DNA of 64,000 bases. It comes from a virus (lineage: Duplodnaviria > Heunggongvirae > Uroviricota > Caudoviricetes). A program made the translations under genes and the position numbers. The notes under the pieces were generated by a model. It did no database searches. It was not told where the DNA came from and saw only the letters and a list, made by a program, of their open reading frames with translations. This document shows positions 6,274-33,619 of the stretch, one piece after another. The stretch spans positions 109,277 to 173,276 of IMG/VR virus record IMGVR_UViG_3300012286_000299. One strand, written 5' to 3'. Each line of letters starts with the position of its first letter. The first letter of the stretch is position 1.

Positions 6274-7509
6274 ATGGAAAAGAAAAACAACATAGATTCT
6301 CAGTATATTAAGCTACTAGAGGATATTTTAGAAAATGGTATTAAAAAACAAACAAGAAATGGTGAAACTATTTCAGTATTCGGAAGACAAATACGTCACG
6401 ATATGAAAGACGGTTTTCCGTTGCTTACAACCAAGAAAATGCCGTTCAAAACAATCGTAACAGAACTTCTTTGGTTCTTACGAGGTGATACCAATATTAA
6501 GTATTTGGTTGATAATAATTGTCATATTTGGGATGGTGATGCTTATAAGAATTATATAAATACCGCACCACCTACATTAGATGGGAAGTATTTATCACAA
6601 CCAGAATTTATTCATTGGATAAAAACAGATGATGAGTTTGCTAAGAAGTGGGGTGAGTTAGGTCCAATTTACGGTAAGCAATGGAGAGATATTCCTGTAA
6701 TAAAAGATGGAGATGTAGAAGGTCATAAGATATTAAGTAGTATAGACCAAATCCAAAACCTAATCAACGACCTTAAAACAAATCCAGACTCAAGACGATT
6801 AATGGTTAATGCTTGGAATGTTGGAGAATTAGACCAAATGGTTCTTCCACCTTGTCATTATGGATTTCAAGTTTATACTAGAGAGTTGACTAAACAGGAA
6901 CGTTGGATGGCTTATTGTAATAAATGTAATGAATTAAAAACAGAATCAATTATAGGTTCTACCGATGATAAAGTAATGGAAAGTTATTATCAAGAATATA
7001 ACATACCAACACGAGCAATCTCTTTAATGTGGAATCAACGTTCAGTGGATACATTCTTAGGTTTACCATTTAATATTGCTTCTTATGGATTGTTGTTGGA
7101 AATCATTGCTGAAATCGTTAACATGGTTCCTGACCAATTGATTGGTAATCTTGGTGATACACACTTGTATTCAAATCATATTGAACAAGCAAAAGAACAG
7201 ATTGGAAGAGAGCTTAATGAAGATGAGAGATATGAATTAGTAACCCAGCAAATGAGTAAACTAAGAGCGATCAGAGATGAAGATTACATTAATTACAATA
7301 TTCCAACTAGAACAAGACAACCTTATTCTTTACCTAAAGTAAGAATCAATACTGAATTCTGGAACCCTGGTACAGAAGATGGATGTGGAATGGGACCAGG
7401 AACTTATACAAAAGATATAGGTGCTCTTGTAGAAGGAATGGAAGTAAATGATTTTCAAATTGAGGATTATCAATCACATCCAACAATCAAAGCACCCTTA
7501 TCAAATTAA
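6274..7509 (+). CDS. thymidylate synthase (ThyA) family enzyme with two large insertions (TS, or dUMP hydroxymethylase-type)
   Basis: ThyA motifs are present: LWFLRGDTN, GPIYGKQWR, SRRLMVNAWNVGEL..LPPCH (active-site Cys), QRSVDTFLGLPFNIASY (Asn, hence dUMP-type) and GDTHLYSNHIEQAKEQ, with a ThyA-like C-terminus DFQIEDYQSHPTIKA. It is 411 aa against about 265 aa for ThyA, because of inserts of about 45 aa and about 60 aa. Confidence 0.75.
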   Translation: MEKKNNIDSQYIKLLEDILENGIKKQTRNGETISVFGRQIRHDMKDGFPLLTTKKMPFKTIVTELLWFLRGDTNIKYLVDNNCHIWDGDAYKNYINTAPPTLDGKYLSQPEFIHWIKTDDEFAKKWGELGPIYGKQWRDIPVIKDGDVEGHKILSSIDQIQNLINDLKTNPDSRRLMVNAWNVGELDQMVLPPCHYGFQVYTRELTKQERWMAYCNKCNELKTESIIGSTDDKVMESYYQEYNIPTRAISLMWNQRSVDTFLGLPFNIASYGLLLEIIAEIVNMVPDQLIGNLGDTHLYSNHIEQAKEQIGRELNEDERYELVTQQMSKLRAIRDEDYINYNIPTRTRQPYSLPKVRINTEFWNPGTEDGCGMGPGTYTKDIGALVEGMEVNDFQIEDYQSHPTIKAPLSN

Positions 7510-7513
7510 AAAT

Positions 7514-7735
7514 ATGACACGAACTGAAATACACCCAAACACTTTTATATTTAGTGAAATACATGAATTAGAACCAGTTTCTTTAGAAATGGTGGTTGTG
7601 GATAAACAAGATGTTGTGTTATTTGACCATAAACAAGCAGCAGAACAGTTTTTAAATACTTTCCATGAAAAAGTTTGTGATTATTTTTTAATAGAACTAG
7701 TTGAAATAATTCAACAAACTAGATTAAATAAGTAA
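7514..7735 (+). CDS. hypothetical protein
   Basis: The track ORF 7448..7735 overlaps the thyA-like gene. The ATG at 7514 (MTRTEIHPNT...) follows the upstream stop. Confidence 0.4.
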   Translation: MTRTEIHPNTFIFSEIHELEPVSLEMVVVDKQDVVLFDHKQAAEQFLNTFHEKVCDYFLIELVEIIQQTRLNK

Positions 7736-9405: not shown

Positions 9406-9882
9406 ATGGGAAAATATCAATCAACAAAATTATTCGAGAACTACTCAGTAGCTATCAGACAATGGAAAGCACAACACTCACATTGTCAATTACTTCACGG
9501 ATATGCTTTAGAATTTAAAGTATGGTTTGAATCAATCGAACCTTTAGAAGAAAATCAATTAGACGAAATGAACTGGATCATGGACTATGGTGGGTTTAAA
9601 GAACAACCACAAGGAAACGGTTTAAAAGCATGGATGGACTATATGTGGGATCATACTCTACTAATCGAGAAAGATGATCCGCAATTAGAAACATTCCAAT
9701 ACATGCAAGAATTAGGTTTGTGTCATTTAAGAGTTATGGATAAGATTGGAGCTGAATCAGCTGCTAAACTAGTCTTCGATAAATTCAATGATGTAATGTC
9801 TAAGAATGGAGGAGGTAGAGTAAAAGTAGTAAAAGTAGAGTGCTGGGAAGCTCCTAAGAATTCATCAATTTATGGAGAGTAA
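9406..9882 (+). CDS. queD: 6-carboxy-5,6,7,8-tetrahydropterin synthase-like (QueD/PTPS family)
   Basis: About 158 aa with a C-x4-HGY..E.K motif (HCQLLHGYALEFKVWFE) resembling the PTPS/QueD Cys-x-His-Gly-His zinc site. Context between QueE-like and FolE genes. Confidence 0.5.
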   Translation: MGKYQSTKLFENYSVAIRQWKAQHSHCQLLHGYALEFKVWFESIEPLEENQLDEMNWIMDYGGFKEQPQGNGLKAWMDYMWDHTLLIEKDDPQLETFQYMQELGLCHLRVMDKIGAESAAKLVFDKFNDVMSKNGGGRVKVVKVECWEAPKNSSIYGE

Positions 9883-10747
9883 ATTTCTACAAGAGAATGG
9901 TTTTTTCGATGATAATACAGGAAAAATATCTCTAGCAGATAAATTAGAAGGTAAAACAAAACAGTATATGAAATTAAAAAGAATAGAAGATTACAACAAA
10001 ATACTGCCGATAGTAGAAGTCTATACAGCAGTACAATCAGAAGGAAGTAGAGCAGGATATCCTACAGTAGTAATTCGAACAAGTGGCTGTACTCACCGCT
10101 GCTGGTTCGGTGAAGGAGGTTGGTGTGATAGTCCATACACATCAATTCATCCAGAGAAAGGGAAATATTCATTCCAGAATATAATTGAAGCATACGACAG
10201 AAATCCTCACATCACAGAGATGATGTTAACTGGAGGATCACCAACAATGCATCCAGCATTAGTAAACGAATTAACACATTTTGCACATGAAAGAGGAATT
10301 TTTATTACTATGGAAACAGAGGGATCACATTACTTGGAAACAGACTTTCCGATTAATTTACTTAGCATTAGCCCTAAGTTTTCAAATTCAATTCCAGCAT
10401 TGGGAACCCGCACTCCAGGCGGTGACATCGTTGATGAAAAGATGGTTAAACAGCATAACAAACTTAGATTAAATTATGATGCAATGTCTAAGTCAATTGC
10501 GTATCATTCTGATTATCACCTGAAACCAGTGTGGGATGGAGAGGATGAAGGAGCATTGAAAGAGATTATGGCTTGCATTAAAATTCTAGATATTCCAGAA
10601 GACAAAGTTTGGTTCATGCCAGCAGGAGATTCAAGAGAGGCTTTATTCAAATCATATCCTAAAATGTTTGATTGGGTAAGAGATAATGGATATAGATTGA
10701 CTTGGAGACCACACATCATTGCATTTGAAGATAAAAGAGAAGTATAA
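9872..10747 (+). CDS. queE: radical-SAM 7-carboxy-7-deazaguanine synthase-like (QueE)
   Basis: Cys triad in SGCTHRCWFGEGGWCDSPY (non-canonical spacing, as known for some QueE), a glycine-rich SAM motif MLTGGSPTMHP, and a position adjacent to queD/folE. Confidence 0.6.
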   Translation: MESKFLQENGFFDDNTGKISLADKLEGKTKQYMKLKRIEDYNKILPIVEVYTAVQSEGSRAGYPTVVIRTSGCTHRCWFGEGGWCDSPYTSIHPEKGKYSFQNIIEAYDRNPHITEMMLTGGSPTMHPALVNELTHFAHERGIFITMETEGSHYLETDFPINLLSISPKFSNSIPALGTRTPGGDIVDEKMVKQHNKLRLNYDAMSKSIAYHSDYHLKPVWDGEDEGALKEIMACIKILDIPEDKVWFMPAGDSREALFKSYPKMFDWVRDNGYRLTWRPHIIAFEDKREV

Positions 10748-10803
10748 TATCATTTGGATATTAAAATAGAATTTATTACATTTACCTATTAAAAAAATTA
10801 TAA

Positions 10804-11499
10804 ATGACAGAAAATAGAAAAAAAGTCCACAACGATTTAGAAGTGGTACAAGTGGGATTTGCTAATGGTGTAGCACCTGGATTTCCCCTAAATGAGATTG
10901 AAAAACAAGGTATGATTGAGCAGGCTGCTGAAGCCTATGGTCAGTTTTTAACAGCATTAGGTTGTGATTGGAAAAATGATCCTAATAGTGCTGATACACC
11001 AAGACGTGTAGCTAAAGCCTATGTTAACGATCTATGGAAAGGTAGATATACTCCAATGTCTGAAATTACTTCATTCCCAAGTGATGGTTATGATGGGATT
11101 GTGATTGAAAGAAATATCCCTTTAACATCAATGTGTTCACATCACCACCAAACAATTGGAGGGGTAGTTCATATTGGGTATGTGGTAGGTGAAAATGGTA
11201 GAGTAATTGGTTTATCTAAATTAAACCGAATTGTAGAGCATTTTGGGCGTAGAGGTGCTATTCAAGAACAATTAACCTCTGCTATTCATCAAGCTGTAGA
11301 TAAAATTTGTGAAAATAATAGAGGTGTAATAGTTTCTATTGTTGGTACTCACAATTGCGTTTCTTGTAGAGGTGTTAAGCATCAAGGTGCTTCAATGATT
11401 ACAACTAAAGCATCAGGTGTTTTTATGGAGAATGGAAACTTAGCAAGAGAAGAATTCTTTGATTCAATTAAAATTAATAATGGTAATCATCCAGTATAA
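10804..11499 (+). CDS. folE: GTP cyclohydrolase I
   Basis: SMCSHHHQTIGGVVHIGYV matches the FolE zinc-site/active-site block (SMCEHH...VHIAY) in a 231-aa protein. Confidence 0.8.
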   Translation: MTENRKKVHNDLEVVQVGFANGVAPGFPLNEIEKQGMIEQAAEAYGQFLTALGCDWKNDPNSADTPRRVAKAYVNDLWKGRYTPMSEITSFPSDGYDGIVIERNIPLTSMCSHHHQTIGGVVHIGYVVGENGRVIGLSKLNRIVEHFGRRGAIQEQLTSAIHQAVDKICENNRGVIVSIVGTHNCVSCRGVKHQGASMITTKASGVFMENGNLAREEFFDSIKINNGNHPV

Positions 11500-11903
11500 T
11501 GGCTTTAAGAATTCATAATAAAATTTATTTAGGTTGGGATGATATTAATGATTTAATTGATACATTATGTTCAAAAATTATTACTGATCTTCCTAATATT
11601 GATTCAGTTCATGGTATAAAACGCGGTGGGTTAATTCCTGCCGTGTTGGTATCACATAAATTAGGTTTACCGTGGTCTGACGTGATGTTACCTAATACTT
11701 TAGTAATAGATGATATTTGTGATACTGGAGTTACTTTAAAAAATACAGTTGGAACTTATACGGCTGCTTTACATTATAAACCTCATACTTCTTGTTTTAT
11801 ACCTAATATTTATGCCCACGAACATAAAGGTGATGAATGGATTATCTACCCTTGGGAAAGAAAAGATTCAGAATCTATACAAGATTATTTAAAAACAAAA
11901 TAA
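11499..11903 (+). CDS. phosphoribosyltransferase (type I PRT) domain protein
   Basis: PRPP-binding motif LVIDDICDTGVTLK (compare HGPRT VVDDIVDTGGT) in a 134-aa protein. TAATG-coupled to folE. Confidence 0.5.
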   Translation: MALRIHNKIYLGWDDINDLIDTLCSKIITDLPNIDSVHGIKRGGLIPAVLVSHKLGLPWSDVMLPNTLVIDDICDTGVTLKNTVGTYTAALHYKPHTSCFIPNIYAHEHKGDEWIIYPWERKDSESIQDYLKTK

Positions 11904-11907
11904 AAAC

Positions 11908-12099
11908 ATGGCAAAAACTGAACAAATTCTCCAAATTACAGAAGTTATTTCAAATTTAGGAAAAGATCTTTTATCTGCAAATGAATCTAAAACAAATGCA
12001 TCATCTGAAGATCTACTTTTAATAGAACAAAATATTCAATATCTTGAAACTGTTTTACAAGAACATAAAGATAAACTTCAACAACTTATTTCTGAATAA
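11908..12099 (+). CDS. hypothetical protein (coiled-coil)
   Basis: 63-aa ORF. Confidence 0.35.
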   Translation: MAKTEQILQITEVISNLGKDLLSANESKTNASSEDLLLIEQNIQYLETVLQEHKDKLQQLISE

Positions 12100-12102
12100 T
12101 AA

Positions 12103-12492
12103 ATGACAGAAAATTTTGATCCAAATGCTCCTTCAAGAGGATTAGGTGATACAATTGCTAAATTTACTCATACAACTGGTATAGCTAAAGCTGTAGAAGT
12201 TGTAACGGGTGCTTTAGGAATAGAAGATTGTGGTTGTGGAAGAAGACAAGAATGGGTTAATAATTTAATTCCATATGAGAATCAGCCCAACCATAATGTT
12301 CAATATGATCCTAATAATGCTACAGAAGTAGAAGAAGGGATATATGAGGTAATGTATGAGATCCATGCTACTAAAGAAGGTAATAAATTTGATTACAAAG
12401 TAGGTGAAAAAATTTTGATAAATGAAAATCATTTATTATATTCAAATTGGCCTTATTATATAATGATAGGCGCAGTTAAAAAACAAAATTAA
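12103..12492 (+). CDS. hypothetical protein
   Basis: 129-aa ORF. Confidence 0.45.
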   Translation: MTENFDPNAPSRGLGDTIAKFTHTTGIAKAVEVVTGALGIEDCGCGRRQEWVNNLIPYENQPNHNVQYDPNNATEVEEGIYEVMYEIHATKEGNKFDYKVGEKILINENHLLYSNWPYYIMIGAVKKQN

Positions 12493-12501
12493 ATTAAAGT
12501 T

Positions 12502-13026
12502 ATGATTACAAAACCCAATGTACCTTTTATTGACGAGGTAGAAGAATTTAATGCCGTGATGGGCAAACCAAACAATTATGAACCAATTATTCCCGAAAGA
12601 AAAGAGTGGGAGTTCGTGTACAATTTCATCCTTGAGGAACTTGAAGAATATCGAGAAGCTTGCGAAGCAGGAAACATCGTGGAAGTTTTGGATGCTTTGT
12701 GCGATATTACTTATGTTGCCACTGGGAACGGTGCTATGCTACATGGCCTTAAGGGTAAGGTATGGCCGGCATATCAAGAAGTACAAGCTTCAAATTTATC
12801 GAAAGCTTGCCAAACTGAAGACGAAGCTAAAGCAACTGTCATTCAAAGATCGAGTGAACAAGGTGAAGAATGTCATTACGAAAAAGTTGGAGAATATTTC
12901 ATCGTATATCGAACAAGAGATAGAAAAGTAATGAAAAACGTAAATTACTTCAAACCAAACTTAAAACAATTCTTTACAGATAAAGAAATTCAAAAATCAT
13001 ATTTAATACAAATAACAGGAAATTAA
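12502..13026 (+). CDS. MazG-like nucleoside triphosphate pyrophosphohydrolase (putative)
   Basis: An all-alpha NTP-PPase-like motif: EELEEYREACEAGN..EVLDALCDITYVATG (E-E-x-x-E ... D metal-site pattern). Confidence 0.45.
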   Translation: MITKPNVPFIDEVEEFNAVMGKPNNYEPIIPERKEWEFVYNFILEELEEYREACEAGNIVEVLDALCDITYVATGNGAMLHGLKGKVWPAYQEVQASNLSKACQTEDEAKATVIQRSSEQGEECHYEKVGEYFIVYRTRDRKVMKNVNYFKPNLKQFFTDKEIQKSYLIQITGN

Positions 13027-13539: not shown

Positions 13540-14085
13540 ATGGATAAAAAAGTATGCAGTAAATGTAAAATTGAAAAAACTTTAGAAGAGTTTTCAATAG
13601 ATTTGTCTACTAAAAGTGGTAGAAAAAGTCAATGTAAAGAATGTAGAAAATTAATTTCTAAAAAGGAATATAAAAGTGATCCTTTATCTCATAATGTTAG
13701 AACTAGTGCTTATTATAAGGATAATAAAGAGTCTACTAGGAAGCAACAACGTGATTATGAAAGAAAACGTTTAAAAGTAGATCCCTTATTTAAATTAGGA
13801 AAATCAATGAGATGTCATTTGTATAGAATATTACAAGGACAAAAATCCATGAGTACTAAAGAATTATTAGGGTATAATGTTGAAGAATTAAAAATTCATA
13901 TTGAATCTCTTTGGGTAGAAGGAATGAATTGGGAAAATTGGGGTAAAGAATGGGAAATTGATCATATTTATCCTCTATCTCAATATTTAAAAGAAGGAGA
14001 AACTAGGCCTAGTATAATTAATAGTCTTAAAAATCTTCAACCTATAAGTAAAATTGAAAATCGAAAAAAATCAAATAAGTTATAA
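13540..14085 (+). CDS. HNH homing-type endonuclease
   Basis: N-terminal Cys4 (CSKCKIEK...CKECRK) and an HNH core EIDHIYPLSQ...NLQPISKIENRKK. Paralogous to 50911..51546. Confidence 0.65.
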   Translation: MDKKVCSKCKIEKTLEEFSIDLSTKSGRKSQCKECRKLISKKEYKSDPLSHNVRTSAYYKDNKESTRKQQRDYERKRLKVDPLFKLGKSMRCHLYRILQGQKSMSTKELLGYNVEELKIHIESLWVEGMNWENWGKEWEIDHIYPLSQYLKEGETRPSIINSLKNLQPISKIENRKKSNKL

Positions 14086-15812
14086 TGTATAAGAATATTG
14101 TTACGAATTCATTAGGGAAAAATAGATATAAGGTCATTTTATACACTGATGATGGAGTTGAAGAACATGAATTTCAAAATTATGCATATGAAGTGTGTAG
14201 CCAAAACCAGGCTACACATTTTGGTCTAAATGGAGAACCTTTAATGAAAACTACTTATTGGGATAAAACCAATCCCTTTATTCATTATCATGATATGCCT
14301 ATTCATCAAAAATTTTTAATTGATAAATATGGTACTAATGATGAACCCTCAACTACACATCAAGAAATATTTTTTGATATTGAGATTGAAATGGGAGGTG
14401 CTCTTACACCTGAGTACATTAGAAAAGCTCCAAAACCTGTTACTTCAATTGCTTGGTGGCATAAACAAGAAGATAAATGGTATATTTTAATTTTAGATAA
14501 AGATAATAAAATTGAAAAAACTACTATAGAGAATAAATATATTATTCCTGTACCTAACGAAAGAGAATTATTAAATAAGTGGTTAAATTATTTGAACAAA
14601 GTTAACCCTGATATCTTAATTGGCTATAATAGTGATTACTTCGATATACCTTACCTATACTATAGAATACTAAATCAATTAGGTGAACGTAGAGCTAATG
14701 CTTTCTCTCCAATAGGTAAAGTTAAAGAACAAAAACATTCAAATGAATCAGGAATGGTTTTTTGGAATGAAGAACAACCTATAAGAATAGAAGGAATGTA
14801 TTCTTTGGATTACATTCGCTTACATAAAAAATATTCGTTTGCAGATGAACCATCTTATAAATTAGATGCTTTAGGAGAAAAGTATTGTAAATTAGGTAAA
14901 ATTGAATATGAAGGTAGTTTAGACAGATTATTTGAAACTGATAAAGAAAAATTCATTGAATATAACTTTCGAGATGTTGAAATCCTAAAAGCACTTGATA
15001 ATAAATTTAATTATATTAGTTTAACTAAAAATCTAGCTCATAAGGGTAAAATCCATTATGATGATGTTTATCAATCATCTAAAATTCATGATGGAGCTAT
15101 TTCAGCATTCTTATTATCAGAAGATATAATTCCTCCTTCACGAGATAGAAACCCAATTAAAAAAGCTAATTACGCTGGTGGTTATTTGTTTTGTCCTAAA
15201 GCAGGGTTATATCGCTATATGTTTGATGAGGATTTAACTTCACTATACCCATCAATTATTATGTCTCTTAACATTGGTAAAGAAACATTAATAGGTAGAA
15301 TTATTGATTTAAATGATAGAAACAATCATTTAGGTTTAAATGATTTAATAAATGATATTGAAGATAGACCTCGTACTATGGAATGGTTTACTAATAAAGA
15401 TAAGTTCAGTAAAATTGATTGGACTTCTTCTAAAGTAGTTAAACTAATTCAACAATATAATTTGGCTATCTCAGCAAATGGTGTTATCTTTCGTACAGAT
15501 AAAGAGTCTGTATTATCAACTATTCTGAATAAGTGGTTTGATGAAAGGGTTTTATACAAAAATAAAATGAAAGCTGCATATAAAGCAGGAGATACAGTAG
15601 GTGGTGAGAAATATCATTTATTGCAATATACAATGAAAATCTTACTTAATTCACTTTATGGTGCTACAGCATTACCTTCATTTAGATATGGGAATGTAAT
15701 TCTATCAGAAGCAATCACTTTAAGTGGACAACGTATTATTCAAGAATCAGCACTTTGTGCTAACAGACATATGAACAAAGTTATTCGTGGTGAAATTAAA
15801 TTAGAGATATAA
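14085..15812 (+). CDS. family-B DNA polymerase, N-terminal fragment (3'-5' exonuclease plus polymerase motifs A and B)
   Basis: Exo I FDIEIEM, Exo II YNSDYFDIPYL, motif A DLTSLYPSIIMSLNIG, motif B KILLNSLYGA. Stop lies 50 aa after motif B. Confidence 0.85.
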   Translation: MYKNIVTNSLGKNRYKVILYTDDGVEEHEFQNYAYEVCSQNQATHFGLNGEPLMKTTYWDKTNPFIHYHDMPIHQKFLIDKYGTNDEPSTTHQEIFFDIEIEMGGALTPEYIRKAPKPVTSIAWWHKQEDKWYILILDKDNKIEKTTIENKYIIPVPNERELLNKWLNYLNKVNPDILIGYNSDYFDIPYLYYRILNQLGERRANAFSPIGKVKEQKHSNESGMVFWNEEQPIRIEGMYSLDYIRLHKKYSFADEPSYKLDALGEKYCKLGKIEYEGSLDRLFETDKEKFIEYNFRDVEILKALDNKFNYISLTKNLAHKGKIHYDDVYQSSKIHDGAISAFLLSEDIIPPSRDRNPIKKANYAGGYLFCPKAGLYRYMFDEDLTSLYPSIIMSLNIGKETLIGRIIDLNDRNNHLGLNDLINDIEDRPRTMEWFTNKDKFSKIDWTSSKVVKLIQQYNLAISANGVIFRTDKESVLSTILNKWFDERVLYKNKMKAAYKAGDTVGGEKYHLLQYTMKILLNSLYGATALPSFRYGNVILSEAITLSGQRIIQESALCANRHMNKVIRGEIKLEI

Positions 15813-16076: not shown

Positions 16077-17012
16077 ATGAAACATTTAGAAGATACCCCA
16101 TGGTGGATATGTGATGAAGGTGATTTTAATTTTTGTGCTTATGTTGATACAGATTCTAATTATTTCAATGCTGAGCCATTATTGAAACATTTATATCCTG
16201 ATTTTGATGAAAAAACTGATCAAGAAAAAGATGATTTATTAGAGAAAGTAGCTCTTAAGTACCAAGATATTATAACTGAACACTATGATATACTTGCTAA
16301 AGAAGCCTTTAATATTAGTACACACCGATTAGAAATGAAAACTGAGTGTGTTATTCGTTCTGCTTATTTTAGAGCTACAAGACGTTATGCTCAATGGATT
16401 ACTAAAAAAGAAGGTATAGCAAAAGAGGAATTAGACATTAAAGGATTAGAATTTAAAAAAGCTAATTTCCCTAAATATTTTGGAAAGTTTTATCAAGAAA
16501 TTCTTGAATTAATCATTAAAGGTACTTCACAGAGTATTATAGATAAGAAAATTCATGAATTTAGACAAGAAGCAACCTCAACTGATATAGATTTTACCCT
16601 TATAGGTAACCCAACATCAGTTAAAACATTAAATGAGTATATAGCTTCCCACCCTAAACCAGGTAAAATATTATCTGAAATAAAATCAGGAGCTGGTGCA
16701 TCAGTTAAAGCTTCTATCAAACATAATGATTTATTACGATTTTGGCAATTAGATTCAAAACATAGTCAAATAGTACAAGGTGATAAAGTAAAATGGGTTT
16801 ATTTAAAAAATAACCCTTATAATATAGAAGCTATTGCATTTTTAGAATTTGATATGGCTGATAAAATCAAAGACTTCATTAATGAATATATTGATAGAGG
16901 GAAAAGTTTTGAAACTATATTACAGAAAAAACTACAAGGCTTCTATGATGACCTTGAATGGATGTTACCACCAGCAAATCCACTAATACATAAATTTTTT
17001 ACATTCAACTAA
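16077..17012 (+). CDS. family-B DNA polymerase, C-terminal fragment (motif C plus thumb)
   Basis: Own ATG; motif C CAYVDTDSNYF 22 aa from the start; KKANFPKYF (KxY-like). Confidence 0.8.
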   Translation: MKHLEDTPWWICDEGDFNFCAYVDTDSNYFNAEPLLKHLYPDFDEKTDQEKDDLLEKVALKYQDIITEHYDILAKEAFNISTHRLEMKTECVIRSAYFRATRRYAQWITKKEGIAKEELDIKGLEFKKANFPKYFGKFYQEILELIIKGTSQSIIDKKIHEFRQEATSTDIDFTLIGNPTSVKTLNEYIASHPKPGKILSEIKSGAGASVKASIKHNDLLRFWQLDSKHSQIVQGDKVKWVYLKNNPYNIEAIAFLEFDMADKIKDFINEYIDRGKSFETILQKKLQGFYDDLEWMLPPANPLIHKFFTFN

Positions 17013-17806: not shown

Positions 17807-18214
17807 ATGAGTACAAAATTTAATGAATTTGACATTCTATTCCACAATTTCTTTTACCCAACAAGTGGATTCGGTTCAGCAGCAACCACAAAACAACCTC
17901 ACCCTTTAAATATCTTTTATGACGATAACGGACTTCACTTTGAAGTAGCGTGTACTGGTCTTACTAAAGATGAGGTAAATGTAGATATCGAGGATGATAT
18001 CTTAAAAATTAGTTATAATAAAGCAGAAGAAGAAAAAGAACTTCATCCTGGAACAATCGTAAGAGGATTGTCTAAAAAATCTTTTAATTTAGGTTATAAA
18101 ATTTCAGCTAAATATGATTTGTCATTAGCACTAGCAAAACTAGAAAATGGTTTGCTAGAAATTTCTATACCTGTAGCTGAAAAAGCAAAACCAAAATCAA
18201 TAAAAATAAAATAA
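17807..18214 (+). CDS. small heat-shock protein (Hsp20/alpha-crystallin family)
   Basis: Alpha-crystallin domain pattern: DDNGLHFEVACTGLTKDEVNVDIEDDILKIS...ENGLLEISIP. Confidence 0.65.
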   Translation: MSTKFNEFDILFHNFFYPTSGFGSAATTKQPHPLNIFYDDNGLHFEVACTGLTKDEVNVDIEDDILKISYNKAEEEKELHPGTIVRGLSKKSFNLGYKISAKYDLSLALAKLENGLLEISIPVAEKAKPKSIKIK

Positions 18215-18890: not shown

Positions 18891-20531
18891 ATGACAGAAA
18901 CAGTATTTGGACCCGAATTAAAATCAAAACTATTAGAAGGAGTTAGAAAACTCAATAATAGTGTATCATCTACCCTAGGACCAGCAGGTAGAACAGTATT
19001 AATTAAAGGTGAGTATGGTCAATTAACCGTAACTAAAGACGGTGTATCCGTAGCTAAGGCTTTTAAAGAATTAGAAGATCCAGTAGAATCTACAGGTGCA
19101 GAATTAGTACAAAAAGTATCAGTTAAATCCGCAAATGAAGTTGGAGATGGAACAACTACAGGTACTTTATTAACCTATGCTCTTTTAGAAGAAGGTTTAA
19201 AACATGTTAATGCAGGACAAAATGCAGTAGAAATTAAAAAAGGTATTGATGCTGCTGTAGAAGAAATTAAATCCTCACTTAACAATTTAACAGAAGATAT
19301 TTCTGATAACCAACAAATTAAAGAAGTTGCTACTATTTCAGGTAATAACGATGAAGAAATTGGTAATTTAATTGCTACTGCTTTAGAAAAAGTAGGCAGA
19401 GATGGAGTAGTTGCTATTGAAGAGTCTAAATCAGGCGAAACTTCACTTGAAGTTGTAGAAGGTATGCAGTTTGATAGAGGTTACAAATCACCTTATTTTG
19501 TAACTGATAATAATACAATGACAGCTGTATTAGATAACCCATATATTTTAATTTATAATGGTAGAATTACTAACCACCAAGAATTAATTCCAGCTTTAAC
19601 TTTAGCTAACACTGAAAAACGTTCATTATTAGTAGTAGCAGAAGATATTGATGGTGAAGCATTAGCAGTAGCTATTGTTAATAAAATGAGAGGTATTGTA
19701 AATGTTGTTGCTGTTAAAGCTCCTGATTTTGGAGATCGTAGAACAATGGCTTTAGAAGATTTAGCTATTATTACAGGTGGTCAAGTTTTATCTAAAGATA
19801 AGGGGCATAAATTAGAAAAAATTGATGTTAATACCTTAAAACAATGTTTAGGTACATCTCGTACTGCTACAATTGGAAAAGAGAAAACTACTATTGTAGA
19901 TGGTAAAGGTGAAGAAGAAGCTATTACAACTAGAGCTCAAGAAATTAAAAAACAAATTGATGACGCTGGTTCACCATTTGAAAAAGAAAAATTACAAGAG
20001 CGTTTAGGTAAGATGATTGGTGGAGTAGCTATTATTAACGTAGGTGGTAATAGTGAATTAGAAATCAAAGAGAAAAAAGATAGAGTAGAAGATGCTTTAT
20101 TCGCTACAAGAGCTGCTTTAGAAGAAGGTATTGTAGTAGGTGGTGGTACTGCTTTATTATATGCTAGAAAATCTATTACATTTGAAGGTGCAAATGATTT
20201 TGTTTTAGGTAAAAAAATAGTTTATAAAGCTGTAACAGCACCCTTCCAGAAAATTTTAACTAATGCCGGACACGATCTTGTAGAAGTACAATATTTAGGT
20301 TCTAAATTAACTGATTCTGAAAAAGGAAGTAATTGGGCAGGTCTTAATTATAAAGATTTATCAACAATGGATTTCAAATCAGCAGGTATTATTGATCCTA
20401 AAAAAGTAACTCGTATTGCATTAGAAAATGCAGCATCAGTTGCAGGTACAATTTTAACAACTGAATCTGTAATCTACGAGAAAAAAGAAGACAATAAAGA
20501 AGAAATCAATCCTATGCAAGGAATGATGTAA
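18891..20531 (+). CDS. groL: chaperonin GroEL (Cpn60)
   Basis: LGPAGRTVLI, AVKAPDFGDRR, GGGTALL and the C-terminal Gly-Met tail PMQGMM, in 546 aa. Confidence 0.9.
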   Translation: MTETVFGPELKSKLLEGVRKLNNSVSSTLGPAGRTVLIKGEYGQLTVTKDGVSVAKAFKELEDPVESTGAELVQKVSVKSANEVGDGTTTGTLLTYALLEEGLKHVNAGQNAVEIKKGIDAAVEEIKSSLNNLTEDISDNQQIKEVATISGNNDEEIGNLIATALEKVGRDGVVAIEESKSGETSLEVVEGMQFDRGYKSPYFVTDNNTMTAVLDNPYILIYNGRITNHQELIPALTLANTEKRSLLVVAEDIDGEALAVAIVNKMRGIVNVVAVKAPDFGDRRTMALEDLAIITGGQVLSKDKGHKLEKIDVNTLKQCLGTSRTATIGKEKTTIVDGKGEEEAITTRAQEIKKQIDDAGSPFEKEKLQERLGKMIGGVAIINVGGNSELEIKEKKDRVEDALFATRAALEEGIVVGGGTALLYARKSITFEGANDFVLGKKIVYKAVTAPFQKILTNAGHDLVEVQYLGSKLTDSEKGSNWAGLNYKDLSTMDFKSAGIIDPKKVTRIALENAASVAGTILTTESVIYEKKEDNKEEINPMQGMM

Positions 20532-23619: not shown

Positions 23620-25044
23620 ATGAAAGAAGGTTATATACCAAAAGAACAAAGAAAAAAGATATTATTCATTTGTGATGATATCAGAATGCACTCGGGTGTA
23701 GCTACAATGGCTCGAGAAATAGTTTTAGGAACCTCTCACCATTATAACTGGGTAATAATTGGAGCAGCTATTGATCATCCTGAATCAGGACAAAGATTAG
23801 ACTTATCTGATGCTACTAACAAAGAAACTGGAAATGAGGATACAAATGTAATTATCTATCCTAGTAATGGATATGGAAGTGCTGATTTAATCAGATATAT
23901 GATAAAGAATGAAAAACCTGATGGGTTAATGTTCTTTACGGATCCAAGATATTATGACTGGTTATTTGCTATCGAAAATGAAGTAAGAAAACAAATACCA
24001 ATGATTTACTTAAACATTTGGGATGATTTACCTGCTCCACTTTATAATAGAGCATTCTATGAATCATGTGATGCTTTATTAGCTATCTCAAAACAAACCA
24101 AAAACATTAATGAAATGGTTTTAGGTAAAAAAGCAGATGGTAAAGTTATCTCTTATGTACCTCATGGTATTAATGAAAAAATGTTTTATCCTATAGAAGA
24201 TAAAACACAGTTACAAGAAACTAAGAAAAAATTATTTGGAGATAAAGAATTTGATTTTGTATTATTCTTTAATTCACGTAATATTAGGAGAAAATGTACT
24301 AGTGATTTATTAGCAGCTCATAAAATGTTTTTAGATTCTTTACCTAAAGAAAAAGCTGATAAAATTGCCTTAGTATTACATACACAAGTTGTAGATAATA
24401 ATGGTACTGATTTAGATGCTGTTAGAACTTTATTATTTGGTAAGAAATCAAACATATTCTTTTCAGATCAAAGAATTGATACTGCTGAGTTAAATAGAAT
24501 TTATAATATATCTGATGCTGTAGTATTACCTTCTTCAAATGAAGGATGGGGATTAGCAATAACTGAAGCTATGATGGCTGGTAAAATGATAATCGCTAAT
24601 GTAACTGGAGGTATGCAAGATCAAATGCGTTTTGAGGATGAAAATGGTAAATGGATTGAATTAACACCTGAATTTCCTTCTAATCATTTTGGTACTTATA
24701 AAAAATGTGGTAAGTGGGCTGTACCTGTATTCCCTAATAACATGTCATTAGTAGGTTCACCTATAACTCCTTATATTTGGGATGATAGATTAGATTTTAG
24801 AGACTTAGCAAATGCTATTAATCAGGTTTATGAATTATCTCCTGAAGAAAGAGTAGAAAATGGTAAAGCAGCTAGAGAATGGGTAACTTCTGATGAATCT
24901 GGTATGAGTGCTAGAATGATGTGCAATAATGTAATTAAAGATATTGATTTAACTTTAGAAACATTTAAACCTAAAAAATCATTTGATCTACTTTTAGTAG
25001 AAGATTTGGAACCTCTAGAATTAGTTCATAAATTAACGTATTAA
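23620..25044 (+). CDS. glycosyltransferase, GT-B fold (GT4-like)
   Basis: E-x7-E motif region LPSSNEGWGLAITEAMMAGKMII; 474 aa. Confidence 0.7.
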   Translation: MKEGYIPKEQRKKILFICDDIRMHSGVATMAREIVLGTSHHYNWVIIGAAIDHPESGQRLDLSDATNKETGNEDTNVIIYPSNGYGSADLIRYMIKNEKPDGLMFFTDPRYYDWLFAIENEVRKQIPMIYLNIWDDLPAPLYNRAFYESCDALLAISKQTKNINEMVLGKKADGKVISYVPHGINEKMFYPIEDKTQLQETKKKLFGDKEFDFVLFFNSRNIRRKCTSDLLAAHKMFLDSLPKEKADKIALVLHTQVVDNNGTDLDAVRTLLFGKKSNIFFSDQRIDTAELNRIYNISDAVVLPSSNEGWGLAITEAMMAGKMIIANVTGGMQDQMRFEDENGKWIELTPEFPSNHFGTYKKCGKWAVPVFPNNMSLVGSPITPYIWDDRLDFRDLANAINQVYELSPEERVENGKAAREWVTSDESGMSARMMCNNVIKDIDLTLETFKPKKSFDLLLVEDLEPLELVHKLTY

Positions 25045-25102
25045 TTAGATAAGATAAGTTTTCCATTGGGTACATATATTTATTATCATAAATACGTACC
25101 TA

Positions 25103-25774
25103 ATGGATTATCAAAGAATTTACAACCAATTAATAGAAAAAGCTCAAAGTAGAACCTTAGAAGGTTATATTGAAAAACATCATATTATCCCTAAATGTCT
25201 AGGAGGAAGTAATGATAAAGAAAATTTAGTAGAATTAACAGCAAGAGAACATTTTTTATGTCATATGTTACTTTGTGAGATTTATCCTAAAGAAAATAAA
25301 CTAAAACATGCCTTATTTTTAATGTCTATTGGTAAACAAAGGATTAAAGAAAAACATTATGTTGTTGGTTCTAGAGTTTATGAAAGGCTTAAAACTGAAT
25401 ATTCTCAATTTTTAACAGGTAAAAAACAATCACAAGAAACTAAAGATAAAAAGAGTAAAGCTATGTTAGGAATTTGGGAAGATAAAACCCAAGAAGAAAA
25501 ATCTAAGATAGGACAAAAAAGATGGGACACTAGAATCAAAAATGGGACTACTAATATTAAAAGTATTAATAGAAGTAAATCATTAAAGGGTAGAGAAATT
25601 ACATGGGACCGAGGAGTTAATAAAATCATTATTCAATATGATAAACAAAATAACTTTATTAAAGAATGGTCTAGTATATCAGAAGCTCAAAGGCAAATAG
25701 GAGGGGATATTAAAGGTGCTTTAGCAGGGAGGCAAAAAACTGCTGCAGGTTTTATTTGGAAATACAAAAACTAG
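25103..25774 (+). CDS. HNH homing-type endonuclease
   Basis: EKHHIIPKCLGGSNDKENLVELTAREHFLCH (HNH core) plus a C-terminal IENR/NUMOD-like region. Sits between two glycosyltransferase genes. Confidence 0.6.
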   Translation: MDYQRIYNQLIEKAQSRTLEGYIEKHHIIPKCLGGSNDKENLVELTAREHFLCHMLLCEIYPKENKLKHALFLMSIGKQRIKEKHYVVGSRVYERLKTEYSQFLTGKKQSQETKDKKSKAMLGIWEDKTQEEKSKIGQKRWDTRIKNGTTNIKSINRSKSLKGREITWDRGVNKIIIQYDKQNNFIKEWSSISEAQRQIGGDIKGALAGRQKTAAGFIWKYKN

Positions 25775-25797
25775 TTATTATATTAAAATAAAAAAAA

Positions 25798-27105
25798 ATG
25801 AAAAATACATTTGTGATATCATGTCCCATAGATTGTTATGCAGGGTATGGAGCACGTTCACGTGATTTAGTTAAAGCGTTAATTAATTTAGATAAATACG
25901 ATGTTAAAATAATGCCTCAACGTTGGGGAAATACACCTTGGAGTTTTATTGAAGATCATCAAGAAGAATGGGGATTTTTACAACCACATATTTTAACAGG
26001 TCAGTTAACTCAACAACCTGATATTTGGGCTCAAATAACAGTACCTAATGAATTTCAAGCTATTGGAAAATATAATATTGGAATAACAGCGGGTATCGAA
26101 ACTACTATTTGTGCTCCTCAATGGATTGAGGGTATGAATAGAATGAGTTTAAATTTAGTTTCATCAGAACATGCTAAAAAAGTATTTCAAGATTCTAAAT
26201 TTCAAAAACATGATGAAAGGACTAAACAAGTTGTTGGTGTAATAGAATTAACATCTCCTATTGAAGTATTATTTGAAGGAGTAGATATTGTTAAATACTT
26301 TGCATCTACATTAACTCCTACTTCCGAAATAAAGCAAGCCTTAGATAATGTAAAAGAAGAGTTTGCATTTTTATTTGTGGGTCATTGGCTTCAAGGTGAT
26401 TGGGGTCAAGATAGAAAAGATGTAGGAGGGTTAGTTAGAGTATTCTTAGAAGCCTTTAAAAATAAATCTAAAAAACCTGCTCTTATATTAAAAACAATGT
26501 CAGGTCCAACTAGTATTATAGATAGAGATAATATCTTGAAAAAAATAGACGTTATAAGACAATCTATGCCTACTAAAAACTTACCTAATATTTACTTATT
26601 TCATGGTGAAATATCAGACGATGAAATGAATCAATTATATAACCATTCTAAAGTAAAAGCAATGGTTAGTTTTACTAAAGGAGAAGGATTTGGTAGACCT
26701 TTACTTGAATTTACTCAAACTAAAAAACCAGTTATTGCTTCAAATTGGAGTGGACAATTGGATTTCTTAAACCCTGAATTTACTTCATTAATACCTGGTA
26801 CTTTAACTAATATTCATCCATCTGCTCAAGTTAAGGATATGTTAATTGATGGTTCACAGTGGTTTACAGTAGATTATGGATTTGCTGGTGGTATATTAAG
26901 AGATTATTTTGAAAATTATAAAAAATATCAAGATAATGGTAAACGTTTAGCACATTATTGTAAAACTAATTTCTCATTTGAGAAAATGCAAGAAAAATTA
27001 GATACTATATTAACTGCTAATATACCTGAGTTTCCAAAGCAAGTGCAATTGAAATTACCTCAATTAAAAAAGGTTGAGTTACCTAAATTAAAAAAAGTAG
27101 AATAA
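25798..27105 (+). CDS. glycosyltransferase, GT-B fold (putative)
   Basis: FTKGEGFGRPLLEFTQTKKPVIASNWSGQLDFL resembles the GT4 E-x7-E donor-binding block; 435 aa. Confidence 0.5.
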   Translation: MKNTFVISCPIDCYAGYGARSRDLVKALINLDKYDVKIMPQRWGNTPWSFIEDHQEEWGFLQPHILTGQLTQQPDIWAQITVPNEFQAIGKYNIGITAGIETTICAPQWIEGMNRMSLNLVSSEHAKKVFQDSKFQKHDERTKQVVGVIELTSPIEVLFEGVDIVKYFASTLTPTSEIKQALDNVKEEFAFLFVGHWLQGDWGQDRKDVGGLVRVFLEAFKNKSKKPALILKTMSGPTSIIDRDNILKKIDVIRQSMPTKNLPNIYLFHGEISDDEMNQLYNHSKVKAMVSFTKGEGFGRPLLEFTQTKKPVIASNWSGQLDFLNPEFTSLIPGTLTNIHPSAQVKDMLIDGSQWFTVDYGFAGGILRDYFENYKKYQDNGKRLAHYCKTNFSFEKMQEKLDTILTANIPEFPKQVQLKLPQLKKVELPKLKKVE

Positions 27106-27106
27106 A

Positions 27107-27559
27107 ATGAAAGATAAATTATCTATATGCCCACGTTGCGGGAGTGATGCTTGTTATGTCACTCCTGTAAATGAAGTAAAAAACAACTATTTCTGTTTTG
27201 GATGTGGTTTTCAAACAAATGACCTAATGAAAGAAGGTGAATTTGATTTTGAAACATATGAAGAACCATTACCTGAACTATATAAAGATCTTAAAAACAC
27301 TGATTCAGAAAAACGTGTTTGGTATCCAATTACTATTAATATTCAGGATAAAGGAACGGTATTTGCCAATGGAAAAACCAAAGATAATTGGACATGGGCA
27401 GGAGTAAAGGCCGTTGAAGTAAGCGAAGAAGAAAAAGGTAAATTTAAAATACCTGGTACTGAAGATTACTATACTCATAAAACTGATATTAAATCTTTAA
27501 AGAATTATCCACAAGATGATTTTATTGAAGCCCTAGATTATATAGGTTTTTATAATTAA
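27107..27559 (+). CDS. zinc-ribbon protein
   Basis: CPRCGSDACYV...CFGCGF at the N-terminus. Confidence 0.4.
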   Translation: MKDKLSICPRCGSDACYVTPVNEVKNNYFCFGCGFQTNDLMKEGEFDFETYEEPLPELYKDLKNTDSEKRVWYPITINIQDKGTVFANGKTKDNWTWAGVKAVEVSEEEKGKFKIPGTEDYYTHKTDIKSLKNYPQDDFIEALDYIGFYN

Positions 27560-27562
27560 TAT

Positions 27563-28180
27563 ATGAGAATAAGTTATGCAATTCCTGTTTGTAATGAACA
27601 TGAAGAATTAATGAGATTACTAAGCATCCTCATCACCAATAAAAGAGATGAGGATGAAATAGTAGTTCAATGTGATCAGGGTAATACTACACCTGAAGTA
27701 TATAAAGTATTAGACCAATTTTTTGGTAGAATAAGTGTTATAGAATTTCCATTAAAAGGTAATTTTGCGGCTTTTAAAAATAATTTAAAGAAGCATTGTA
27801 CTGGAGAATGGATTTTTCAAATTGATGCTGATGAATACGTAACTATTGAATTTTTACAAAGTTTACATTTAATTTTACAAGATAATCCTACAACAGAAGT
27901 ATTTTTGCTTCCTAGAATTAATACTGTAGAAGGATTAACTCAAGAGCATATTAATAAATGGAGATGGAATGTAAATGAGAAAGGATGGGTTAACTTCCCA
28001 GATTTACAACCTCGTATACTTCAAAATTCACCTAAAATTAATTGGGGTAATAAAGTACATGAAGTACTAATGGGTCATAGTACATGGTCTACTTTACCAT
28101 TAGAAGATGATTATTGTCTGTATCATCCAAAACATATTGAAAGACAAGAACGACAAAATAATTTATACGATTTATTATGA
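27563..28180 (+). CDS. glycosyltransferase family 2-like (putative)
   Basis: N-terminal ISYAIPVCNEHEEL resembles the GT2 ...IPxYNE... start, with EIVVQCDQGNTT at the DxD-like position. Confidence 0.4.
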   Translation: MRISYAIPVCNEHEELMRLLSILITNKRDEDEIVVQCDQGNTTPEVYKVLDQFFGRISVIEFPLKGNFAAFKNNLKKHCTGEWIFQIDADEYVTIEFLQSLHLILQDNPTTEVFLLPRINTVEGLTQEHINKWRWNVNEKGWVNFPDLQPRILQNSPKINWGNKVHEVLMGHSTWSTLPLEDDYCLYHPKHIERQERQNNLYDLL

Positions 28181-29529
28181 TAAAATTTATAATATTTGAT
28201 TTAGATGGTGTTTTAGTAGAAGCCAAAAATATTCATTTTGAAGCTTTAAATGAAGCTTTAGGAAAAAAATATGAAATATCTTGGAATGAACATTTAAGTA
28301 AATATGATGGTTTAAAAACAAATCAAAAACTTGAAATGTTAACTCAAGATAAAGGGTTACCTGTTGCATTATATAAACAAGTTTGGGATGAAAAACAACG
28401 ATTAACTTTACATAAGTTAAAAAACTTACAACCTGATACTCAATTAATGGTTTGTATGGATTCATTAGTACAACAAGGTTATAAATTAGCAGTATGTTCA
28501 AATAGTATACGTAAAACTGTATTAACAGTGTTATCTAAATTAAATATAATTGAAAATTTTGATTTAATATTATCTAATGAAGACGTAAAGAATAGTAAAC
28601 CTCATCCTGAGATTTATTGGAAAGCCATATCACAAATGGGTTTTTTACCTGAGGAAACACTTATTGTTGAGGATTCACCTTATGGTTTACTAGCCGCAAG
28701 CAGGAGTAAAGCTTCTGTAATGAGAGTTGGATCCCCAAAAGATATTTCGTATAATAACATTTATAAATACTTAAACCAAGAAAAAATGAATTTAACACCT
28801 AAATGGAAAGATGACAAATTAAATGTTTTAATTCCTATGGCTGGAGCTGGTTCACGTTTTGAACAAGCAGGTTATACTTTTCCTAAACCTCTAATAGAAG
28901 TAAAAGGTAAACCAATGATCCAAGTTGTAGTTGAAAACTTAAACTTAGAAGCAAATTATATTTATGTAGTACAAAAAGCTCATAGACAAAAATATAACTT
29001 AGATACATTATTAAATCTAATTACACCAGGATGTAAAATTGTAGAGACTGATGGGTTAACTGAAGGAGCAGCATGTACTGCTTTATTAGCTAAAGAATTT
29101 ATAGACAACAATGCTCCATTGTTTTTTGCTAATTCAGATCAATTTGTAGAATGGGACTCAAATGAATTTATGTATAAAATGAATGAAACTAACGCTGATG
29201 GTGGTATTGTTTCATTTACTGCTACTCACCCTAAATGGTCATTTGCTAAAGTTGATGAAAACGGATTAGTAACTAAAGTTGCTGAGAAAAATCCTATTTC
29301 AGATATAGCAACTGTAGGATATTACTACTGGAAACATGGTTCAGATTTTGTTAAATATGCTGAGCAAATGATTGAAAAAAATATAAGAGTAAATAATGAA
29401 TTCTATGTATGTCCTGTATTTAATCAAGCAATTGAAGATTGTAAACAAATCCGAACTTTTAACACTAATGGAATGTGGGGTCTTGGAACACCTGAAGATT
29501 TAAATTATTATTTAGAACATTATGTATAA
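28177..29529 (+). CDS. bifunctional HAD-superfamily hydrolase / sugar- or alcohol-phosphate nucleotidyltransferase
   Basis: N-terminal HAD motifs FIIFDLDGVL (I), SKPHPEIY (III, Lys) and VEDSPYGLLAA (IV). C-terminal nucleotidyltransferase P-loop LIPMAGAGSRF (G-x-G-[ST]-R), compare LicC/RmlA/HddC-type. Confidence 0.6.
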   Translation: MIKFIIFDLDGVLVEAKNIHFEALNEALGKKYEISWNEHLSKYDGLKTNQKLEMLTQDKGLPVALYKQVWDEKQRLTLHKLKNLQPDTQLMVCMDSLVQQGYKLAVCSNSIRKTVLTVLSKLNIIENFDLILSNEDVKNSKPHPEIYWKAISQMGFLPEETLIVEDSPYGLLAASRSKASVMRVGSPKDISYNNIYKYLNQEKMNLTPKWKDDKLNVLIPMAGAGSRFEQAGYTFPKPLIEVKGKPMIQVVVENLNLEANYIYVVQKAHRQKYNLDTLLNLITPGCKIVETDGLTEGAACTALLAKEFIDNNAPLFFANSDQFVEWDSNEFMYKMNETNADGGIVSFTATHPKWSFAKVDENGLVTKVAEKNPISDIATVGYYYWKHGSDFVKYAEQMIEKNIRVNNEFYVCPVFNQAIEDCKQIRTFNTNGMWGLGTPEDLNYYLEHYV

Positions 29530-30322: not shown

Positions 30323-30324
30323 AA

Positions 30325-31871: not shown

Positions 31872-31877
31872 AAAATT

Positions 31878-33618: not shown

Positions 33619-33619
33619 T

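Follow-up and report, generated by a model that had tools for sequence, protein, structure and literature searches.

Does an unusually long thymidylate synthase homologue encoded by a tailed phage (Caudoviricetes) make thymidylate, or is it one of the hydroxymethylases that feed modified-thymidine pathways, and what are its additional residues? The question is raised by a 64,000-nucleotide stretch of IMG/VR record IMGVR_UViG_3300012286_000299 (positions 109,277 to 173,276 of that record; hereafter the window), in which an open reading frame (ORF) at 6274-7509 specifies a protein of 411 residues. An initial annotation, made from the letters alone, described a ThyA-family enzyme with two large lineage-specific insertions, and considered that it might hydroxymethylate dUMP in connection with a glycosylation island further downstream. 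We consider it probable (roughly 0.8), judging from sequence, that the ORF encodes a functional classical thymidylate synthase (TS; ThyA, EC 2.1.1.45) carrying non-catalytic surface cassettes. It is the inserts that make the locus interesting, their middles turning over far faster than the enzyme core: the function appears ordinary, but the modular evolution is unexpected.

Family membership and layout of the extra residues

The ORF is real, and its product belongs to the ThyA family and has all of the catalytic residues. It scores above threshold against Pfam PF00303 (E=9.6e-87; 290.9 bits, cut-off 24.3) and the TIGR03284 equivalog model (302.4 bits, cut-off 108.35), and it matches PHROG 160, 'thymidylate synthase'; because of its inserts it scores just below or below the cut-offs of the narrower PRK01827 sub-models. 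All 120 PDB sequences that it matched are thymidylate synthases, headed by the E. faecalis enzyme 3uwl (E=7e-68). An AlphaFold (AF2) model built from an 83-sequence family alignment reached a predicted local distance difference test score (pLDDT) of 86 and a predicted template modelling (TM) score of 0.88, and its top Foldseek match was again 3uwl (E=4e-31; target-normalised TM score 0.91), in agreement with a TS fold. The enzyme adds a new member to a family that is very well known, and in cultured relatives the gene is already annotated as thymidylate synthase. The features of the gene, which like all genes of the window (G+C 26-36%) lies on the + strand, are as follows.

6274..7509, + strand: thyA, thymidylate synthase; ATG start, 411 aa plus stop, from the ORF list
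6538..6636, + strand: small-domain region of the L. casei/E. faecalis type (~33 aa, aa 89-121), aligning to the small domain of 3uwl and 4dq1
6844..6891, + strand: 5' flank of cassette 1, codons 191-206, the LPPCH strand with Cys194 and His195; conserved at synonymous sites
6880..7014, + strand: cassette 1 (aa 203-247), RELTKQER-helix-loop-helix-YNIPTR, replacing the beta-hairpin turn ADG (155-157) of E. coli ThyA
7012..7086, + strand: 3' flank of cassette 1, in which the QRSVD and FNIASY blocks lie (Gln255, Arg256, Ser257, Asp259, Asn267); synonymous conservation over codons 247-265
7207..7314, + strand: cassette 2 (aa 312-347, 36 aa), RELNEDER-helix-loop-helix-YNIPTRT, between helix K and the REP.PLP segment
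7357..7428, + strand: variable C-terminal insert of ~21 aa (aa ~362-385), of low occupancy in relatives; pLDDT 61-66
7477..7506, + strand: conserved TS C-terminal tail HPTIKAPLSN, aligning to HPGIKAPVAI of E. coli ThyA and without counterpart in SPO1 gp29 or T4 gp42

The E. coli ThyA reference (264 aa) was verified against the PDB sequence before aligning. Over aligned columns the two proteins are 51% identical, and the phage protein is the longer by 147 aa, close to the excess of about 150 first estimated. This excess includes 7 N-terminal residues and a loop of about 9 aa (aa 143-151); the two cassettes, together with the stretch at aa ~362-385, explain only about 100 of the 147 residues, or two thirds. 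The small-domain loop corresponds to hypervariable region V1 of the family consensus, and is of unrelated sequence in two otherwise near-identical alleles (L085 and L106).

The alignments and family scores bear out the large insertions of the initial annotation, with corrections to their description. The insert of about 45 aa placed ahead of the QRS.D block is indeed there, comprising 42-45 aa at aa 203-247 after the beta-strand that follows the catalytic Cys. Additional sequence is likewise present near the C-terminus, where a single insert of about 60 aa had been described, but it consists of two pieces of 36 and ~21 aa, cassette 2 being separated from the aa ~362-385 stretch by the conserved TS segment RQPYSLPKVRINTEFW. 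The CNKCN pair exists in the first insert, but both of its Cys residues are unconserved among relatives; hence it is not a metal site, and a zinc or CxxC site was rejected. Nor are the inserts lineage-specific, as hundreds of phage and metagenomic ThyA proteins have them.

Catalytic residues and comparison with hydroxymethylases

The ThyA catalytic blocks were correctly recognised from the outset, with PPCH at aa 192-195, QRSVD at 255-259 and FNIASY, including the dUMP-specifying Asn267, at 266-271. Across the 83 members of the family alignment, Arg28, Glu64, Trp86, Tyr133, Arg174, Arg175, Cys194 and His195 are invariant, as are Arg256, Ser257, Asp259, Asn267, His297, Tyr299 and the terminal Leu409-Ser410-Asn411; in the tail, His402 and Ile405 are also invariant and the remainder of HPTIKAP is nearly so. 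Cys194-His195 corresponds to Cys146-His147 of E. coli ThyA, and the four phosphate-binding arginines are present as Arg28, Arg256, Arg174 and Arg175 (E. coli Arg21, Arg166, Arg126' and Arg127'). Residues for dUMP specificity, proton transfer and hydride transfer are kept as Asn267, Glu64, Tyr133, Gln255, Asp259, His297, Tyr299 and Trp86 (in E. coli, Asn177, Glu58, Tyr94, Gln165, Asp169, His207, Tyr209 and Trp80, respectively). The position of E. coli Trp83 is occupied by Asp89; human TS has Asn at this position.

A joint alignment with E. coli ThyA and two hydroxymethylases proven by experiment, SPO1 gp29 (383 aa) and T4 gp42 (sequence identical to PDB 1b49), the comparison proposed at the outset, places the ORF with TS, at 51% identity against 22% to gp29 and 25% to gp42; BLASTP of the ORF against gp29 gave E=0.002 only. 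What the ORF shares with both hydroxymethylases is the superfamily, the Cys nucleophile, the DSRR-type phosphate arginines and the RS.D block, and gp29 further shares with TS the Asn at position 177. Beyond this they diverge. SPO1 gp29 reads PCN and YNRS and is without equivalents of His147, Gln165 and Trp80 and without the TS tail, whereas the ORF has all four; T4 gp42 reads MCT and NMRS, has Asp179 in place of Asn177 and has no tail, whereas the ORF keeps the TS versions. A dCMP hydroxymethylase of the T4 gp42 type was rejected, the cytosine-specifying Asp being absent and Asn267 invariant in the family.

Bacterial ThyA proteins with a small domain (E. faecalis 3uwl, L. casei and S. aureus 4dq1) match the ORF in fold, catalytic residues and tail, and their small-domain insertion after IWD is partly in common with it. 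At 315-321 aa against 411 aa, however, they have no cassette at the beta-hairpin turn or after helix K.

Two homologous and hypervariable cassettes

The inserts are translated, homologous to one another and hypervariable, and they appear to have moved between alleles and from one site to the other. Each opens with REL(S/T)xxER and closes with (N)IPTR, and comparison of the insert 1 and insert 2 alignments by hhalign gave a probability of 97.9% (E=4.4e-13), indicating homology. In the AF2 model, cassette 1 has helices at 207-221 and 232-241 (pLDDT 75-94) and cassette 2 at 316-326 and 335-340 (pLDDT 87-92); the cassettes are modelled mostly at pLDDT 87-94, a helix N-cap motif is present, and each appears closed at its base because it leaves from a beta-hairpin or beta-bridge. 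We infer that the cassettes are surface modules lying outside catalysis.

Their diversity is considerable. When 352 cassettes from 270 proteins were clustered at 50% identity they fell into 195 clusters, in proteins whose enzyme cores are 60-70% identical. Many cassette types recur at either site, with cross-site identity of up to 77% over the full length (E down to 1e-25), and yet no protein carries two cassettes of one type (its two being at most 48% identical). Both sites are occupied in 160 proteins and site 1 only in 28, site 2 being occupied alone in none; P0010 and P0017 are among the relatives from which cassette 2 is missing. Of 60 allele pairs in which the flanking core is no less than 88% identical, 47 differ by an unrelated cassette at site 1, at site 2 or at both. 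At the DNA level, alleles L085 and L106 match at 87-100% of positions along most of the gene, with clear breaks at the V1 loop and at cassette 2, both of unrelated sequence; half-gene mosaics are seen in other allele pairs.

In each of the 120 closest relatives the frame runs uninterrupted through both inserts, although the DNA is only 29% G+C. Within cassette types we counted 744 synonymous and 1016 non-synonymous codon differences, an excess of non-synonymous change smaller than the neutral expectation of about 3:1, which points to moderate purifying selection on the cassettes as coding sequence.

The cassette pattern was found solely inside thyA when the window and six related loci with their flanks were scanned, and a search for cassette-like modules elsewhere in ThyA returned only spurious matches. 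Two kinds of mobile or diversifying system were considered and set aside. A multi-copy, in-frame selfish element was rejected, there being no copies in other genes. Rickettsia palindromic elements, the model for such an element, are about 100-150 nt long, in frame, translated and tolerated on protein surfaces; the cassettes differ from them in being confined to one gene family, in having no extra copies in the window and in giving no palindromic or RNA-pairing signal. A diversity-generating retroelement target was also rejected: blastn revealed no template copy of cassette 1 or cassette 2 elsewhere in the window, and the ORFs scanned with Pfam gave no reverse transcriptase. The searched literature yielded no description of the inserts, and as far as it shows, the cassette architecture is an undescribed variant of TS. 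Its nearest parallels, T4 TS with its surface inserts and the in-frame selfish elements exemplified by Rickettsia palindromic elements, both depart from it in defining respects.

DNA flanking the first cassette

The DNA to either side of cassette 1 is conserved to an unusual degree at synonymous sites. Identity at four-fold degenerate third positions is 0.85 over codons 191-206 and 0.82 over codons 247-265, against 0.53 over codons 1-90 and 0.56 over codons 266-311. At codons 194-204 the fraction of sequences with the top codon is 0.91-1.00, and the codons conserved on the two sides include non-preferred ones, among them GAG for Glu204 and ATC for Ile249. An RNA stem joining the two flanks was rejected, since duplex energies were indistinguishable from those of shuffled sequences (mean z = -0.21, 68 genes). 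An 18-nt inverted match (17/18) does occur between 6913-6930 in cassette 1 (YCNKCN) and 7283-7300 in cassette 2 (DYINYNI); as the flank duplex energies show no signal, we treat it as a chance match in A+T-rich DNA.

Distribution of cassette-bearing ThyA

Relatives of the ORF are encoded on at least 593 IMG/VR viral contigs and in huge-phage assemblies. Among the best 80 loci from 185,579 species-representative genomes, 75 have a plain short hairpin and the remaining 5 carry a cassette on contigs of metagenome-assembled genomes or single-cell genomes. The cassettes occur almost only in phage ThyA. Two cassette-bearing thyA genes (L009 and L017) are on contigs filed under a Prochlorococcus single-cell genome and a Methanobacterium metagenome-assembled genome; both probably represent phage DNA that was mis-binned or carried into a single-cell assembly.

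A site-1 cassette with matching bounds (TRELS/THELT...ER...NVPTRA) is also found in the jumbo phages RisingSun (Erwinia) and Goslar (Escherichia) and in Chryseobacterium phage MA9V-3, the TS proteins of which have E. coli ThyA-like cores and are without the site-2 cassette. In RisingSun (L165, 295-2520) an intron-like insert of ~1 kb with a GIY-YIG endonuclease interrupts thyA after the YQR codons, a point 9 codons downstream of the cassette. By eye only, the small-domain insertion of RisingSun ends in ...DTLGVPRS, which resembles the end motif of the cassettes and could indicate a third site. The Goslar TS (L166, 195-1214) reads LLARSQD for the usual LYQRS.D, so that Gln165 is replaced by Ala; GTPFNIASY is present.

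Genomic context and the nearest cultured relatives

The window derives from an immuto-like phage of ~173 kb that probably infects Flavobacterium or another member of the Bacteroidota. Among cultured phages, the Flavobacterium phages vB_FspM_immuto (160 kb) are closest, and their ThyA is 57% identical to the ORF over its full length. It shares all five variable regions and the two cassette sites with the ORF, but each of its cassettes is of another sequence type. The immuto thyA lies among 7-deazaguanine genes (QueC, QueD, QueE, FolE, DpdA, QueF and a formyltransferase), and a cluster of the same kind follows thyA in the window (9406-13023), with 45-88% identity to the immuto genes.

9406-9879, + strand: QueD, near thyA as in immuto
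9872-10744, + strand: QueE, near thyA as in immuto
10804-11496, + strand: FolE, near thyA as in immuto
11499-11900, + strand: phosphoribosyltransferase
12502-13023, + strand: MazG-like pyrophosphohydrolase, near thyA as in immuto

Homologues of DpdA, QueC, DpdN and thymidylate kinase were not detected in the window; modification of dG may therefore differ from the fdPreQ1 of immuto, or the genes lie elsewhere. The virion DNA of immuto_2-6A, analysed by liquid chromatography with ultraviolet detection and tandem mass spectrometry, contains canonical dA, dC and dT, with dG completely replaced by fdPreQ1 (PMC10516641). Virion DNA with canonical dT is essentially the outcome that the initial annotation had named as speaking against its suggestion, and it is recorded here for the nearest cultured relative, not for the phage of the window. 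Since immuto_2-6A encodes an orthologous ThyA with both inserts, it represents a phage with a two-insert ThyA and ordinary thymidine. The DNA modification known by experiment in the immuto lineage is on guanine, in the form of 7-deazaguanine derivatives.

In phages that use 5-hydroxymethyluracil (5-hmU), companion genes include dTTP/dTMP-degrading enzymes, a dCMP deaminase and a 5-hmdUMP kinase, to which hypermodification adds 5-HMUDK and aGPT-Pplase (PMC8989533). Among the ORFs of the window that were scanned, many of which match no family, there was no Pfam or PHROG match to 5-hmU-pathway or TET/JBP families. A T4-type DNA glucosyltransferase was likewise not found in the 64 kb. The glycosylation island occupies 23.6-36.4 kb and contains two family 1 (GT1) and five family 2 (GT2) glycosyltransferases, a HAD-nucleotidyltransferase fusion and an S-adenosylmethionine (SAM) methyltransferase; several of its ORFs (23620-36381) match no family.

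23620 and 25798 (starts), + strand: GT1 genes
27563, 29522, 34500 and 35179 (starts), + strand: GT2 genes
28177-29526, + strand: HAD phosphatase-nucleotidyltransferase fusion, 60% identical to cyanomyophage proteins
30325-31008, + strand: SAM methyltransferase

The island is 16 kb from thyA, with the deazaguanine genes and the replication module in between, and for at least one of its GT2 proteins immuto encodes a homologue (48.5% identity), beside a sugar epimerase. Nothing ties the island to thymidine; its genes are of generic types with homologues in immuto and cyanomyophages.

Proposed mechanism and identity of the enzyme

Residue conservation, read with established TS enzymology, suggests the following mechanism. 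Cys194 would add to C6 of dUMP, the phosphate of which would be held by Arg28 and Arg256 and by Arg174' and Arg175' of the partner subunit, with uracil selected by Asn267 and protons relayed by Glu64, Tyr133 and His195. Trp86 and the C-terminal tail would close over methylene-tetrahydrofolate, and hydride transfer would then yield dTMP and dihydrofolate, the product supplying dTTP for a genome of 71% A+T. The extra length, all outside the catalytic blocks, would be made up of the small-domain region, the variable loops and a pair of helix-loop-helix cassettes homologous to each other; the cassettes would be surface decorations without a catalytic role, perhaps docking surfaces for partner proteins, swapped between alleles and between both sites by homologous recombination in the conserved flanks.

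The obvious competitor is a dUMP hydroxymethylase, placing 5-hydroxymethyldeoxyuridine in the DNA for subsequent hypermodification or glycosylation by the enzymes of the downstream island. It has in its favour that Asn177 is retained, so that dUMP would be the substrate, that SPO1 gp29 is likewise longer than canonical TS, and that seven glycosyltransferases and a nucleotide-sugar gene lie downstream. We nevertheless regard it as very improbable, and rejected it on grounds of residues, family scores, the neighbouring genes and the DNA composition published for the relative: the TS-specific features are complete, the TS equivalog cut-off is exceeded, resemblance to gp29 is distant, the scanned ORFs gave no 5-hmU-pathway match, the island genes are generic (GT1/GT2, HAD-nucleotidyltransferase, methyltransferase), and the DNA of immuto has canonical dT. 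A classical thymidylate synthase with surface cassettes thus remains our preferred reading, although several points weigh against it. A few substitutions can suffice to alter TS chemistry, a change of a kind that sequence alone cannot exclude. No dihydrofolate reductase was found in the window by Pfam and PHROG scans, so folate recycling would rely on the host or on a gene outside it. The 64 kb cover only part of a genome of ~173 kb, and 5-hmU-pathway genes could lie in the other ~109 kb. Where the cassettes sit with respect to the active site and the dimer interface is deduced from topology. For annotation, the gene would be an ordinary dTMP-forming TS and not a marker of thymidine hypermodification.

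Origin and role of the cassettes

What maintains the cassettes is a separate matter, on which several explanations compete. It is tempting to speculate that they are docking arms for phage partners, as in a dNTP-synthesising complex like that of T4, or for nucleic acid, their diversity reflecting co-evolution with partners or escape from a host factor that recognises phage TS. The surface inserts of the T4 thymidylate synthase Td have reportedly been proposed to mediate assembly of such a complex; they are situated elsewhere than the cassettes, at the small-domain region and near the C-terminus, and neither mutual homology nor hypervariability is known for them. Docking would suit the confident fold (pLDDT ~90), the purifying selection within cassette types, persistence across hundreds of phage lineages (Goslar, RisingSun and MA9V-3 among them), and the finding that one protein never carries two cassettes of the same type; the extreme turnover (195 clusters among 352 cassettes) and the presence or absence of site 2 fit a dispensable element at least as well, and we hold this explanation to be possible but tentative. 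Much the same must be said of the proposal that the cassettes are selfish or neutral in-frame passengers in two surface turns, spread by recombination or co-conversion at a hotspot that is possibly a homing-endonuclease target. Such a hotspot would explain the homogenised DNA beside site 1, where synonymous identity of 0.82-0.85 stands against 0.53-0.62 in the N-terminal part, codons 266-311 and the C-terminus, and it would accord with the mosaic alleles and their sharp local replacements, with the cassette types common to both sites and with the group-I-type GIY-YIG interruption next to cassette 1 in RisingSun thyA. Yet thyA is interrupted in 0 of the 90 closest loci, no endonuclease gene was found flanking thyA in the window, the cassette motif is in thyA and in no other genes, and selection at the protein level is purifying.

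That the inserts are introns, inteins or translational bypass segments, absent from the mature enzyme, can hardly be maintained. thyA/td genes are classic homes of introns and both inserts have conserved boundaries, but the frame is open in every one of the 120 closest relatives in DNA of low G+C, the helix N-cap motif, confident helices and protein-level selection all speak for a translated product, the cassettes have none of the intein splice-junction residues (N-terminal Cys/Ser, C-terminal His-Asn), and the flanks show no significant RNA pairing (mean z = -0.2). Speculative, and slightly less probable than docking or passage, is a recombination-driven cassette system in which the DNA flanking site 1 would serve as the recombination anchor and the diversity would be adaptive rather than neutral, allowing escape from an inhibiting host or competitor factor or conferring partner specificity. 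If the turnover is adaptive, it would reveal an unrecognised conflict or interaction centred on an enzyme of nucleotide metabolism; if neutral, the cassettes would be a natural example of the surface turns of an essential enzyme tolerating modular inserts, and as such useful for enzyme engineering.

Other genes of the window

Synteny was drawn from P0002/L004 and immuto. Further genes with a family assignment, together with an ORF overlapping thyA, are listed below.

47-1108, + strand: PARP-type ADP-ribosyltransferase catalytic domain in a 354-aa ORF (E=1e-16)
7448-7735, + strand: 95-aa ORF overlapping the last 62 nt of thyA in another frame; no family match
13540-14082, + strand: His-Me finger / endonuclease VII-like ORF preceding the DNA polymerase; may be a homing endonuclease
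14085-15809 and 16077-17009, + strand: family B DNA polymerase, split in two ORFs
17807-18211, + strand: Hsp20
18891-20528, + strand: GroEL/Cpn60-family chaperonin
25103-25771, + strand: HNH-like ORF between the two GT1 genes
43443-44177, + strand: CCA-adding / poly(A) polymerase-family enzyme
45038-45487, + strand: YqeY
45669-46787, + strand: ATP-dependent DNA ligase
49568-50404, + strand: SPFH/Band 7 protein
51778-52572, + strand: DUF932
52638-53072, + strand: DenV-like pyrimidine-dimer DNA glycosylase

The true start of the 95-aa ORF may be an ATG just past the thyA stop codon. The syntenic contig L004 likewise has a PARP-type gene, beside NAD-salvage genes (NAPRTase, NADAR).

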